64,000 nucleotides of DNA, taken from NCBI RefSeq assembly GCF_022846255.1, contig NZ_AP025682.1; one strand, written 5' to 3'. This stretch comes from Escherichia coli (GTDB lineage: Bacteria > Pseudomonadota > Gammaproteobacteria > Enterobacterales > Enterobacteriaceae). Below, piece after piece: positions 14,201 through 17,200 of the stretch. Numbering within the stretch: the first letter of the stretch is position 1; every line of letters starts with the position of its first letter. The position numbers are program-made.

Positions 14201-17200
14201 TGGCGATGGAGACATTCAGGCCACCATTAGCGGGTTAGCGTTACCCGGGGAAACCGTTGCCGATCAGCATAAGCAGTGGACAATCGGCGTCCGTCCGGCA
14301 TTCCCGGCACAAACGGTCAATTACGGTACGGCGTTACAGCCTGGTGAAACCTGGGCGCTCCCGGCTGATGGATTGCAAAACTTCTCGCCTGTTACGCTGG
14401 AAGGGCAATTGTTGTTGAGCGGCAAACCACCGCTGAACATCGCACGTTATATCAAAGAGTTAAAAGCGTATCCGTACGGCTGTCTCGAGCAAACCACCAG
14501 CGGCCTGTTCCCGTCACTTTATACCAATGCAGCCCAACTGCAGGCGTTGGGCATCAAAGGCGACAGTGATGAGAAACGCCGTGCATCGGTCGATATCGGC
14601 ATTTCCCGTTTGCTGCAAATGCAACGTGATAACGGCGGCTTTACGCTGTGGGATAAAAACGGTGACGAAGAGTACTGGCTGACGGCTTACGTGATGGATT
14701 TCCTGGTCCGCGCAGGCGAACAGGGTTACAGCGTACCGACAGACGCCATTAACCGGGGTAATGAGCGTCTGCTGCGCTATTTACAAGATCCGGGCATGAT
14801 GTCGATCCCGTACGCTGATAATCTCAAAGCCAGTAAATTCGCCGTACAGTCTTACGCTGCGCTGGTGTTGGCCCGTCAGCAAAAAGCACCACTGGGTGCG
14901 TTGCGTGAAATCTGGGAGCATCGTGCAGATGCCGCTTCTGGTTTACCGCTGCTGCAACTTGGCGTTGCGCTGAAAACCATGGGTGATGCAATGCGTGGTG
15001 AAGAAGCGATTGTGCTGGCGCTGAAAACGCCGCGTAATAGTGATGAGCGGATATGGCTGGGTGATTACGGTAGTCCACTGCGCGACAGCGCGTTGATGCT
15101 CTCATTGCTGGAAGAGAACAAACTGCTACCCGATGAGCAGTACTCCCTGTTGAACACACTTTCGCAGCAGGCGTTCGGTGAACGCTGGCTATCGACGCAG
15201 GAAAGTAACGCGTTGTTCCTGGCTGCCCGTACTCTTCAGGATTTACCGGGCAAATGGCAGGCGCAAACCACTTTCTCTGCTGAGCCGCTGACAGGCGAGA
15301 AAGCGCAAACCAGCAATCTGAATAGCGATCAACTTGCCACCTTGCAGGTGACCAACAGTGGCGATCAGCCGTTATGGCTGCGTGTGGATGCCAGCGGTTA
15401 TCCGCAATCCGCACCTTTACCGGCGAGCAATGTGCTGCAAATTGAGCGTCATATTCTGGGTACTGACGGTAAGAGCAAATCGCTGGACTCGTTACGTAGC
15501 GGCGATCTGGTGCTGGTGTGGTTGCAGGTTAAAGCCAGTAACAGTGTACCGGATGCGTTAGTCGTGGATCTGTTGCCTGCGGGGCTGGAACTGGAAAACC
15601 AGAATCTGGCGAACGGCAGCGCCAGCCTGGAGCAAAGTGGTGGTGAAGTGCAGAACTTGCTGAACCAGATGCAGCAGGCGAGCATTAAGCACATAGAGTT
15701 CCGTGACGATCGCTTTGTGGCGGCGGTTGCCGTTGATGAATATCAACCGGTAACGCTGGTGTATCTGGCGCGGGCGGTGACGCCGGGAACGTATCAGGTG
15801 CCGCAGCCTATGGTGGAATCAATGTATGTTCCTCAATGGCGGGCGACTGGTGCGGCTGACGATCTGTTGATAGTCAGACCGTAAATGCCTCGCCTGTTAA
15901 CCAAACGCGGCTGCTGGATAATGCTGGCAGCCGCGCCTTTTATCATCATTCTGGCAGCATGGGCAGCAGATAAACTCTGGCCTCTGCCATTGCAAGAAGT
16001 GAATCCTGCACGCGTGGTGGTGGCGCAGGATGGTACGCCACTCTGGCGTTTCGCCGATGCTGACGGCATCTGGCGTTATCCGGTAACAATCGAAGATGTT
16101 TCTCCACGTTACCTTGAAGCGCTGATCAATTATGAAGATCGCTGGTTCTGGAAGCATCCGGGGGTGAATCCGTTCTCGGTGGCGCGTGCAGCCTGGCAAG
16201 ATCTCACGTCGGGTCGGGTCATTTCCGGCGGCAGCACGCTCACCATGCAGGTGGCGCGCCTGCTTGATCCTCACCCCAAAACGTTTGGCGGCAAAATTCG
16301 CCAGCTCTGGCGCGCGTTGCAACTGGAATGGCATCTGTCTAAACGTGAAATTCTGACCTTGTATCTTAACCGTGCCCCGTTTGGCGGTACGTTGCAGGGG
16401 ATTGGTGCGGCAAGTTGGGCTTACCTCGGGAAATCGCCTGCGAATTTAAGCTATTCCGAGGCGGCAATGCTGGCGGTGTTGCCGCAAGCGCCCAGCCGTC
16501 TTCGCCCGGATCGTTGGCCGGAGCGTGCCGAAGCCGCGCGTAATAAAGTGCTCGAACGGATGGCCGTGCAAGGTGTGTGGTCCCATGAGCGGGTAAAAGA
16601 GTCAAGGGAAGAACCCATCTGGCTGGCACCCCGACAAATGCCGCAACTGGCACCGCTGTTTTCGCGCATGATGCTCGGTAAAAGCAAAAGCGACAAAATC
16701 GTTACTACGCTGGATGCCGGTCTTCAACGACGTCTGGAAGAACTGGCGCAAAACTGGAAAGGACGATTACCACCGCGCAGCTCACTGGCGATGATCGTGG
16801 TTGATCATACCGATATGCGTGTTCGCGGCTGGGTGGGTTCGGTTGATCTCAACGATGATTCACGCTTTGGTCATGTTGATATGGTCAATGCGATCCGATC
16901 GCCAGGATCGGTGCTCAAACCGTTTGTTTACGGTCTGGCGCTGGATGAAGGCTTGATCCACCCGGCATCGCTGTTGCAAGACGTCCCCCGGCGTACCGGT
17001 GATTACCGACCTGGCAACTTTGACAGCGGTTTTCATGGCCCGATCAGCATGAGCGAGGCGCTGGTGCGCTCGCTGAATTTACCAGCTGTGCAGGTGCTGG
17101 AAGCCTATGGACCGAAACGGTTTGCGGCAAAATTACGCAATGTTGGATTGCCGTTGTATCTGCCCAACGGTGCTGCGCCGAATCTTTCGCTCATTCTCGG

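Follow-up and report, generated by a model that had tools for sequence, protein, structure and literature searches.

The directly abutted yfhM-pbpC junction of Escherichia coli and a conserved RNA hairpin at the beginning of the pbpC coding region

The stretch of DNA that was analyzed, hereafter referred to as the window, comprises 64,000 nucleotides of Escherichia coli (contig NZ_AP025682.1 of assembly GCF_022846255.1) and carries yfhM, which encodes a protease trap, next to pbpC, which encodes a cell-wall enzyme (Table 1). ORF analysis placed the TAA stop codon of yfhM immediately in front of the ATG of pbpC, with a spacer of 0 nt and in the same reading frame, whereby the junction reads ...AGA CCG TAA ATG CCT CGC.... 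Identical boundaries of both genes are annotated by RefSeq in strains ATCC 11775, K-12 MG1655, MP1, and A3176, and the direct abutment without spacer (TAAATG) that had been noticed in the first-pass annotation is confirmed by the ORFs together with these annotations. YfhM has the N-terminus MKKLRVAACMLMLALAGC with the lipobox LAGC, contains the Pfam domains bMG1/2/3/5/6/10, A2M_BRD, A2M, and TED, and matches the ECAM structures 4rtd, 4ziq, and 5a42 from the PDB. PbpC matches the NCBIfam equivalog NF008414 over residues 1-770 with 1564.6 bits at a cut-off of 1121, also matches the equivalog TIGR02073, and contains the Pfam domains Transgly, Transpeptidase, and BiPBP_C. The pair fits the bacterial alpha-2-macroglobulin (A2M, ECAM class)-PBP1C operon, in which a lipoprotein A2M gene is followed by a gene for a PbpC-type class A penicillin-binding protein (PBP).

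Table 1. Features at the yfhM-pbpC junction and their positions in the window.
Feature	Position	Strand	Description
yfhM (ECAM)	10923..15884	+	1653-aa inner-membrane lipoprotein alpha-2-macroglobulin, upstream partner; ORF, RefSeq annotation
pbpC (PBP1C)	15885..18197	+	770-aa class A penicillin-binding protein, downstream partner; ORF, NCBIfam, Pfam
yfhM stop TAA	15882..15884	+	The same in all aligned Escherichia sequences; TAG in one Citrobacter (L045)
pbpC start ATG	15885..15887	+	Adjoins the stop, in frame with yfhM; invariant in 26/26 aligned sequences
In-frame ATG (Met13)	15921..15923	+	In the loop of hairpin 2; allele-specific, not the real start
Last yfhM codons, -20..-4 from the pbpC ATG	15865..15881	+	Expected Shine-Dalgarno position; no Shine-Dalgarno sequence
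Hairpin 1, long-range stem of ~25 bp	15837..15899	+	yfhM 3' end pairs with pbpC +3..+15; UAAAU in an internal loop
Hairpin 2	15906..15935	+	CGCGGCUGCUGG-AUAAUG-CUGGCAGCCGCG; 12 bp, 9 G-C pairs, loop of 6, -22.3 kcal/mol
Weak sigma-70-like promoter match, candidate operon promoter	10850..10878	+	Upstream of yfhM; 9/12 consensus matches only

The abutment depends on which ATG is taken as the pbpC start. If translation began at Met13, PbpC would have 758 aa and the genes would be separated by a gap of 36 nt. This shorter form is the length of the representative of E. coli protein cluster P0001 (10805 members), and some gene callers use Met13. However, RefSeq places the start at 15885, the NF008414 alignment begins at residue 1, K-12 and most other Escherichia carry ACG at the Met13 codon and E. 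albertii carries GCA, the ATG sits in a hairpin loop, and a start at this position would drop the basic residues K7 and R8 ahead of the membrane anchor. On the grounds of the equivalog alignment and of the ACG and GCA codons in other Escherichia, Met13 was rejected as the true start, which we regard as extremely improbable, and annotators should be cautious over the shorter start in some automatic gene calls.

The hexamer TAAATG occurs 21 times on the plus and 14 times on the minus strand of the window; by itself it is common and not above chance, but its placement at the junction is non-random. Compared with K-12, the two genes of the operon show whole-gene identities of 96.3% and 95.7%, and the neighboring genes are only slightly higher. 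An exceptional divergence of the whole operon was rejected, as only 300 nt over the junction form a low stretch (90% identity), the sole one. In the comparison with ATCC 11775, the window is collinear only across sseA-der.

In order to find out how far the stop/start geometry is kept among relatives, genomes were scanned with six exact peptide patterns, which left out Klebsiella, Enterobacter, and other genera without a match; in a separate homologue search, the best 120 matches listed were from Citrobacter only. In Escherichia, Citrobacter, and Salmonella, stop and ATG are abutted at 25/25 species-level loci, as TAGATG at one of them and as TAAATG at the others, and PbpC codons 2-7 vary across these loci, with N-termini such as MPRLL, MMRGLG, and MSGWRG. 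Pantoea and Mangrovibacter have 3 nt between stop and start, and Franconibacter and Buttiauxella have 6-13 nt. Of the 80 species loci sampled, 72 have an A2M gene upstream of pbpC. In Huber et al. (2023; PMC10666635), the spacing of the A2M-PbpC COG pair has a median of 9.2 nt (q1 -4, n=337 pairs), and yfhM/pbpC itself is tabulated at distance 0 in Table S2. These alignments indicate that the stop/start geometry is conserved beyond sequence inertia in Escherichia, Citrobacter, and Salmonella; it is the conservation of the hexamer, not its presence, that counts.

Signals for an independent expression of pbpC were looked for at the junction. The first-pass annotation had named an independent pbpC ribosome-binding site as the finding that would speak against translational coupling, and none was found: the duplex of the region in front of the pbpC ATG with the 16S 3' tail has +0.4 kcal/mol, which is rank 30/31 among the genes of the window (median -5.6), whereby the gene starts for this ranking were placed by BLAST mapping. 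The same holds true for the 24 scored zero-spacing loci plus the window, where anti-Shine-Dalgarno pairing ranges from -0.6 to +0.6 kcal/mol; weak Shine-Dalgarno-like pairing (-2.5 to -3.6) occurs mainly where the gap is 13 nt. Within the window, rodZ and ppx also start without a Shine-Dalgarno sequence, so a missing Shine-Dalgarno is not a proof of coupling. A consensus scan of the yfhM 3' part gave no sigma-70-like promoter match, and the junction leaves no space for an intergenic terminator. The two genes are described as an operon in the literature (PMC4498604), and an RpoE SELEX peak has been reported within the 5' part of yfhM in K-12 (PMC5493296).

In E. coli reporter assays, efficient reinitiation was limited to very short distances, and a spacing of -8..+10 nt predicts coupling (PMC10666635), a range that includes the distance of 0 at yfhM/pbpC. 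With this distance, a weak or absent downstream initiation signal, and a conserved geometry, features predicted for termination-reinitiation at the sequence level are present. Since the abutment is kept despite differing PbpC N-terminal codons and no Shine-Dalgarno, termination-reinitiation coupling is the best reading of the sequence data, and we consider it on balance probable. The suggestion of translational coupling made at first reading is thus supported at the sequence level by the distance of 0, the missing Shine-Dalgarno, the lack of a promoter in the 3' part of yfhM, and the conserved geometry, and the layout probably passes ribosomes from yfhM to pbpC. Kasugamycin study supplements contained neither yfhM nor pbpC among the entries listed.

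Alternatively, the abutment could reflect genome compaction only, with pbpC being translated by independent de novo initiation without Shine-Dalgarno and with little dependence on upstream translation, whereby a locally open, A-rich start would give the low PbpC level that is needed. This is in accordance with the 40-nt windows across the pbpC start, which in the Enterobacterales genera are less structured than the background of the locus (z ~0 to +1.4); the low short-range structure at the A-rich UAAAUG makes some de novo initiation possible. Also rodZ and ppx as Shine-Dalgarno-less neighbors, the lack of conservation of hairpin 1 outside Escherichia, and the fact that YfhM/PbpC is not an annotated complex ("CMPLX not" in a table of PMC10666635) fit to compaction; as no complex of YfhM and PbpC is known, the usual stoichiometry argument for coupling falls away. 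However, neutral compaction does not predict an exact zero spacing in 25/25 species despite changing adjacent codons and N-terminal length. Furthermore, no lineage gained a Shine-Dalgarno, though one could presumably arise by synonymous changes to the Val-Arg-Pro codons, and the Escherichia start lies buried within a fold of -50 to -56 kcal/mol. Compaction without coupling therefore appears unlikely to us.

This fold includes hairpin 1. The region 15825-15945 folds with -56 kcal/mol (z = -5.36), and K-12 gives the same fold with -50.4 kcal/mol. The fold of the junction ±60 nt (-56) is the most stable among 31 gene starts (median -26.3) and 358 operon windows; against the background of its own locus, the stability of this segment varies from z +0.9 to -2.9 across loci. 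In nine Escherichia sequences, the consensus fold contains hairpin 1, with 98% and 89% of the cells paired, and double changes are absent. In an alignment of 26 sequences that reaches beyond Escherichia, 70.3% are paired versus 69.4% in shuffles, and there are 2 double-change pairs versus 1.8 in shuffles (321/500); the RNAalifold consensus of these 26 sequences has -3.1 kcal/mol and is different from hairpin 1. Hairpin 1 was rejected as a conserved start-masking element outside Escherichia, as it is not kept in Citrobacter or Salmonella, and judged from these alignments it is a feature of the Escherichia lineage without covariation.

Hairpin 2 lies downstream of the start codon and spans pbpC +22..+51 (codons 8-17). 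In the alignment, 87.5% of its cells are paired versus 76.4% in shuffles (0/500), double changes occur in 9 of the 12 pairs (17/500 shuffles), and 43 double-change cells are found versus 14.5 in shuffles (0/500). This covariation spans six genera, and RNAalifold concurs with the stem. In six of seven named genera hairpin 2 is the deepest folding dip within -150..+200, and in Buttiauxella the dip moves along with the start codon. It is also the strongest early-ORF hairpin among 31 genes and 98 background windows. An Rfam search of 15500-16300 gave no family (best E 0.72; 7.6-13.8 bits versus gathering scores of 40-75). Based on the compensatory changes and a stability exceeding the needs of the protein, hairpin 2 is assigned as a conserved RNA structure.

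It might be that hairpin 2 has no function at the RNA level and results from the GC-rich codons that encode the conserved basic-Trp-Leu-Ala start of the PbpC membrane anchor. In Citrobacter, protein-preserving shuffles already fold strongly (mean ~-20 kcal/mol per 60 nt; native z -0.1 to -2.65), and due to codon-repeat self-complementarity, 65-68% pairing persists when the partner strand is slid by ±3 columns. Some distant loci in which the genes are not abutted also carry related hairpins (22.5% at p <= 0.05 versus 56% in Enterobacterales), so that a link of hairpin 2 to coupling may be absent. Against a by-product stands that the native sequence is more stable than protein-preserving, synonymous shuffles in 38/40 loci (median z -1.76; control windows 0.01), that some of the double changes in 9/12 pairs alter the protein, for example AA to VT, which pairs with a synonymous CGC to CGT change, and that the differing peptides of Buttiauxella, Franconibacter, and Pantoea have the hairpin at the same offset. 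We therefore judge an origin from codon choice alone as quite unlikely. Another explanation is that hairpin 2 acts as a partial Rho-independent terminator or attenuator in the first 60 nt of pbpC, which would result in high yfhM versus low pbpC mRNA and is compatible with coupling. The consensus scan marks 15906-15935 plus CCTTTTATCA as terminator-like, and Pantoea has UGUUUUUUUAGC after the stem, where U is more abundant than the protein needs (z 2.9-3.9, p 0.003-0.015); by its geometry, the stem would also be left uncovered by a ribosome sitting at the yfhM stop. However, K-12 has only CCCUUUCUC 3' of the stem, the tract CCUUUUAUCA of the window has a z of 0.89, and the genus means of 0.04-1.39, compared to 3.43 in Pantoea, show that outside Pantoea the U-richness is accounted for by hydrophobic codons (z ~0 to 1.4). 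The scan found 10 terminator-like sites versus 10.4 expected in shuffles, and two E. coli Term-seq supplements (PMC7815308, PMC12207403) contain no yfhM/pbpC 3' end among the entries listed, whereby expression is low. Of the sequence features of an intrinsic terminator, the GC-rich stem-loop is present at hairpin 2 and a U-tract beyond coding expectation is absent. A general intrinsic terminator is unsupported, as hydrophobic codons account for the U content in all genera but Pantoea; termination at hairpin 2 might affect some of the transcripts, but the reading as terminator or attenuator is distinctly unlikely.

A third possibility is that hairpin 2 is a dedicated cis-element of the Shine-Dalgarno-less reinitiation site, either as a barrier at UAAAUG that replaces the Shine-Dalgarno or as a ribosome meter. 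We put this forward tentatively and regard it as rather unlikely. For termination-reinitiation coupling, which is the best explanation, the following sequence of events can be proposed. yfhM and pbpC would be transcribed as a single operon, with pbpC lacking its own ribosome-binding site, and most PbpC would be made by ribosomes fresh from YfhM, reinitiation being the presumed main route. Such a ribosome would terminate at UAA, stay on the mRNA, and re-initiate on the AUG at the next base. In Escherichia, a ribosome on the last yfhM codons would have to melt hairpin 1, by which independent initiation would be further suppressed. Hairpin 2 starts 22 nt past the AUG, just outside the leading edge of a ribosome positioned there, and may modulate ribosome entry into pbpC, most likely as a throttle by which PbpC is kept scarcer than YfhM, or possibly as a barrier that holds the post-termination ribosome over the AUG. 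In a library screen, coupling showed a negative correlation with structure just 3' of the upstream stop (review PMC12548453), hence hairpin 2 may lower, not help, coupling.

In E. coli, the most frequent type of operon junction is one between abutted or overlapping genes, and in this respect the yfhM/pbpC abutment is routine. The first-pass annotation had described the junction as known rather than novel, and this assessment stands, since the operon pairing is found in the literature and the distance of 0 is listed in Huber et al. (2023). Hairpin 2, which is absent from Rfam and had been overlooked in the first-pass annotation, is a minor new element, and the junction itself is ordinary and already catalogued. 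The covarying hairpin 22 nt into pbpC constitutes an undescribed conserved RNA structure. As a clean natural Shine-Dalgarno-less zero-spacing junction that is kept over the Escherichia-Citrobacter-Salmonella radiation, the site presents a handy native test bed for scanning/reinitiation versus RNA unfolding. If hairpin 2 tunes reinitiation, this would explain unequal amounts from a coupled pair that does not form a stoichiometric complex, and as a meter it would fix the PbpC:YfhM ratio below one. If the cis-element reading is true, hairpin 2 would represent a bacterial downstream structure governing termination-reinitiation, a class not currently described or in Rfam.

Among known systems, the E. 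coli termination-reinitiation pairs hyfH-hyfI, ydbH-ynbE, and menD-menH (Huber et al., 2019, 2023; PMC6728339, PMC10666635) are comparable to yfhM/pbpC in being co-directional, with stop and start a few nt apart and the upstream coding sequence harboring the start region of the downstream gene. In contrast to yfhM/pbpC, which has a distance of 0 and is known from sequence, these pairs have a 1-nt overlap and are reporter-tested; the tested constructs carry a Shine-Dalgarno motif (figure legend in PMC10666635), which pbpC lacks, and a further difference is that the YfhM and PbpC products form no known complex. Coupling by RNA unfolding is exemplified by genes VII-IX of phage f1 and by coat-lysis of MS2 (review PMC12548453). 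Similar to this type, the Escherichia pbpC start lies in a long hairpin, the 5' arm of which is in yfhM and would be opened by upstream translation, so that a stable structure covering the start with an upstream arm is present; unlike it, hairpin 1 is lineage-specific, with conservation and covariation among relatives absent. As zero spacing blocks a new ribosome while the terminating one is present (PMC12548453), reinitiation is likelier than pure unfolding. Hairpin 2 resembles intra-operon intrinsic terminators or attenuators in being a GC-rich stem-loop right after the upstream gene, at times with a U run behind it, but it is located inside the downstream coding sequence, and its U-tract is above coding expectation only in Pantoea. 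In eukaryotes, a downstream hairpin reportedly improves start-codon selection by the scanning ribosome, as is said to have been found by Kozak in 1990, and we know of no established bacterial counterpart of this effect. Hairpin 2 is similar in that a stable stem lies just past the leading edge of an AUG-centered ribosome (+22 in pbpC). The difference is that the Kozak system concerns eukaryotic 40S scanning, and that the single bacterial library result points the opposite way (PMC12548453). The pairing of A2M and PBP1C in a bacterial defense-and-repair operon is described in PMC4498604, PMC3328433, and PMC3735191, all of which cite Budd et al. (2004), and these papers treat the adjacency and the proposed functional partnership rather than stop/start geometry or RNA structure. 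With this operon, yfhM-pbpC shares the identical two genes in the identical order.

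In the window, the TAA stop codon of yfhM, the gene for the ECAM alpha-2-macroglobulin (A2M) lipoprotein, directly precedes the ATG of the PBP1C gene pbpC (...GTC AGA CCG TAA ATG CCT CGC...). The spacer is 0 nt, both genes share one reading frame and the RefSeq boundaries are identical, which bears out the abutment described in the first-pass annotation. The pbpC product scores 1564.6 bits against the NCBIfam PbpC equivalog (cut-off 1121), aligned across residues 1-770; the yfhM product carries a lipobox and the complete bacterial A2M domain set and matches the solved structures of E. 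coli ECAM. A 1-kb junction probe matched 5425 of the 5426 complete E. coli genomes. The TAAATG hexamer on its own is unremarkable and occurs 21 times on the plus and 14 times on the minus strand of the window.

Coordinates of genes and RNA elements in the window (+ positions within pbpC count from its ATG)
Feature	Coordinates	Strand	Details
yfhM ORF	10923..15884		1653 aa; stop TAA at 15882-15884
pbpC ORF	15885..18197		770 aa; start ATG at 15885-15887
Hairpin 1	15837-15899		yfhM end pairs with pbpC +3..+15; UAAAU in internal loop
Hairpin 2	15906-15935		+22..+51 of pbpC; 12 bp; -22.3 kcal/mol
timP small toxin and Rfam ryfA match	9141-9266, 9108-9412	-	timP start lies within the ryfA match (311.7 bits)
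IS128 RNA	9548-9724		adjoins timP/ryfA
iscRS stability element	1743-1852	+	known RNA, reaches the gathering score
sroE sRNA	22518-22609	+	known RNA, reaches the gathering score

Since yfhM and pbpC share a frame, read-through of the single UAA would yield a 2423-residue YfhM-PbpC fusion, plus one residue inserted at the stop codon. The shared frame is also kept by the in-frame gaps (3, 6 or 12 nt) of Pantoea, Mangrovibacter, and Franconibacter and is lost in Buttiauxella (13 nt). The loop of hairpin 2 also contains an allele-specific in-frame ATG (15921-15923, Met13). P0001, which represents the E. coli PbpC protein cluster (10805 members), has 758 aa and its start is therefore called at the Met13 codon, which is probably a mis-called start. 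Furthermore, an RpoE genomic-SELEX peak at K-12 coordinate 2649866, listed between pbpC and sseA (Shimada et al., 2017), falls into the 5' part of yfhM (window ~11000-11300) and hints at a response of the operon to envelope stress.

A PbpC scan of the species-representative genome collection yielded 80 loci, 72 of which have an A2M C-terminus immediately upstream of pbpC. The stop-to-start gap is 0 nt in Escherichia (5 loci), Citrobacter (18), and Salmonella (2), with TAAATG and once TAGATG, 3 nt in Pantoea and Mangrovibacter, 6-13 nt in Franconibacter and Buttiauxella, and variable in Xanthomonadales. Within the zero-gap clade, the early PbpC codons vary by genus (MPRLLTKRG, MMRGLGKRG, MSGWRGKRG, and others), as do the last YfhM codons. 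Between this allele and K-12, no part of the operon diverges more than the 300 nt across the junction (15723-16022; 90% identity; whole genes 96.3% and 95.7%). TAAATG is invariant across the wider Escherichia alignment, and the core CAGACCGTAAATGCCTCGC is unchanged in the first-aligned set of four divergent E. coli alleles. Because the abutment stays constant while the flanking codons and the surrounding 300 nt diverge, the zero-gap geometry looks as if it were kept by selection and not passively inherited.

At 15400-16400, E. coli splits into two deep allele classes, one of 1007 genomes that share 99% identity or more with the window and one of 4308 that reach only 90-95%. In the locus of Citrobacter amalonaticus AUH_CA_2023_1 (L030, 1-2500), the A2M frame appears broken: locus position 1185 holds a stop codon, and of the 700-residue C-terminal YfhM query the tblastn match covers no residue beyond 260. 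Either a pseudogene or an indel in the assembly would account for this; hairpin 2 and the TAAATG junction are both preserved. E. coli NCTC9100 (L005, 3485-3662; window ~15904-18900) has lost pbpC and ndk, with yfhM intact through its stop; ~19 nt of the pbpC 5' end are left, followed by sequence upstream of rlmN, and the deletion sets in shortly ahead of hairpin 2. Losing ndk raises the mutation rate. Outside sseA-der, collinearity between the window and ATCC 11775 is lost. As ~6.9 kb of extra sequence precede sinH and identity of sinH and the adhesin genes to ATCC 11775 is only 85% and 74%, the region after der (27320-34200 and 34201-41857) is a variable adhesin island.

The region from -20 to -4 of pbpC gave +0.4 kcal/mol against the 16S rRNA 3' tail, i.e., no Shine-Dalgarno (SD) pairing, and ranks 30th among the 31 mapped window genes (median -5.6 kcal/mol). 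SD pairing is likewise absent from every zero-gap locus scored (-0.6 to +0.6 kcal/mol), so that the independent ribosome-binding site which would have spoken against coupling is not apparent; weak SD-like pairing (-2.5 to -3.6) occurs mainly in Buttiauxella with its 13-nt gap. A consensus scan of the 3' part of yfhM detected no sigma-70-like promoter match. SD absence is not peculiar to pbpC in this region, since the starts of rodZ (20366, +0.6 kcal/mol) and ppx (56153, minus strand, +0.1 kcal/mol; ppk1-ppx gap 4 nt in ATCC 11775) show no SD pairing either.

In E. coli, coupling efficiency drops steeply with growing stop-start distance, a distance of -8 to +10 nt is taken to predict termination-reinitiation, downstream genes of coupled pairs frequently stay silent alone, and at very short spacing the terminating ribosome blocks loading of a second one, so that it is itself the likelier one to reinitiate (PMC10666635, PMC12548453). 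The yfhM-pbpC junction agrees with this knowledge on all points visible in the sequence. For this reason we infer, with fair confidence, that termination-reinitiation would be the main route of PbpC synthesis; the proposed coupling is supported at the level of sequence by the distance of 0, the missing SD, and the conserved abutment.

A 121-nt segment around the junction folds with -56 kcal/mol (z = -5.36, equalled by 0 of 200 shuffles), and the ±60-nt context is the most stable among 31 gene starts (median -26.3) and among 358 operon windows. The most buried start of the window is that of timP (mean unpaired probability 0.24; -26.9 kcal/mol for ±30 nt). The junction fold consists of two elements. 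Hairpin 1 is the consensus fold of nine Escherichia sequences (98% and 89% of cells paired), is formed by K-12 (-50.4 kcal/mol), and shows zero double changes within the genus. Across Escherichia, Citrobacter, and Salmonella, its pairing (70.3% vs 69.4%) and its double-change pairs (2 vs 1.8 expected, 321/500) match shuffles, and the RNAalifold consensus (-3.1 kcal/mol) is a different fold. Hairpin 1 was thus dismissed as a conserved mechanism and is treated as a lineage feature.

Hairpin 2 is a conserved structure. An equivalent GC-rich stem from ~+19..+24 to ~+50 is present in Escherichia, Citrobacter, Salmonella, Buttiauxella, Franconibacter, and Pantoea, and farther downstream in Mangrovibacter, arising from differing sequences that code for differing peptides. 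In all seven genera, 40-nt windows starting +15 to +35 after the A2M stop have a mean z of -1.5 to -4.35 against the locus background; this is the deepest folding dip of -150..+200 in all but Pantoea, it shifts along with the start codon in Buttiauxella, and it is absent from the single locus of an Enterobacteriaceae MAG (L032). When the 12 Escherichia-derived pairs were placed on a six-genus alignment of 37 mutually related sequences (500 shuffles), 87.5% of cells were paired (shuffles 76.4 ± 1.0, 0/500), with double changes in 9 of 12 pairs (17/500) and in 43 cells (14.5 in shuffles, 0/500). Sliding the partners by 1-2 columns lowered pairing to 24-38%, while at ±3 it was still 65-68%, reflecting codon-repeat self-complementarity. 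RNAalifold independently recovered nine of the pairs, eight with compensatory changes. In 38 of 40 loci the native sequence is more stable than protein-preserving synonymous shuffles (median z -1.76, control windows 0.01), whereby the Citrobacter shuffles are themselves very stable. Hairpin 2 is the strongest early-ORF hairpin of 31 genes and exceeds all 98 background operon windows; Rfam contains no family matching it. By a crude test, a hairpin exceeding the locus's own null at the equivalent position was seen in 22.5% of distant loci, most of them from Xanthomonadales, compared to 56% in Enterobacterales, so the hairpin may not depend on the abutment.

A general role of hairpin 2 as intrinsic terminator is not supported. 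U-richness 3' of the stem is accounted for by hydrophobic codons in all genera but Pantoea, sites picked up by a terminator scan were no more frequent than in shuffles, and the available parts of the supplements of two E. coli Term-seq studies contain no 3' end for yfhM or pbpC, which is a weak indication. In Pantoea, the pbpC hairpin (L037 ~2441-2476, L047 ~2477-2512, L039 ~2443-2474) is followed by UGUUUUUUUAGC or UGGCUUUUUUAG, with a U content above the protein's requirement (z 2.9-3.9), and looks like a genuine intrinsic terminator within the first 60 nt of pbpC.

When UAA is in its A site, a ribosome extends to ~+10 of pbpC, and with AUG in the P site to ~+16. Since its reach ends there, a stem from +22 would stay folded during termination and reinitiation and would be the first obstacle that the reinitiated ribosome must unwind. 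Most likely, hairpin 2 would act as a throttle holding PbpC below YfhM, in agreement with the absence of any known YfhM-PbpC complex and with a library result in which coupling was lower with structure directly behind the upstream stop (PMC12548453). The more novel alternative is that it might act as a barrier keeping the post-termination ribosome on the AUG.

The A2M-PbpC operon pairing has long been known (Budd 2004, as cited in PMC4498604, PMC3328433, PMC3735191), and a published table already places yfhM/pbpC at distance 0, with a COG2373@COG4953 gap of median 9.2 (q1 -4, q3 65, n = 337; PMC10666635). Our literature search found no paper testing or discussing yfhM-pbpC coupling. As pairing and geometry are on record, the abutment is correct and ordinary, its interpretation as coupling is likewise ordinary and is supported at the level of sequence, and the first-pass annotation rightly called the feature known rather than novel. 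The only new item is hairpin 2, a conserved structure with a putative role and of the same general type as the RNA structures familiar from coupled junctions.
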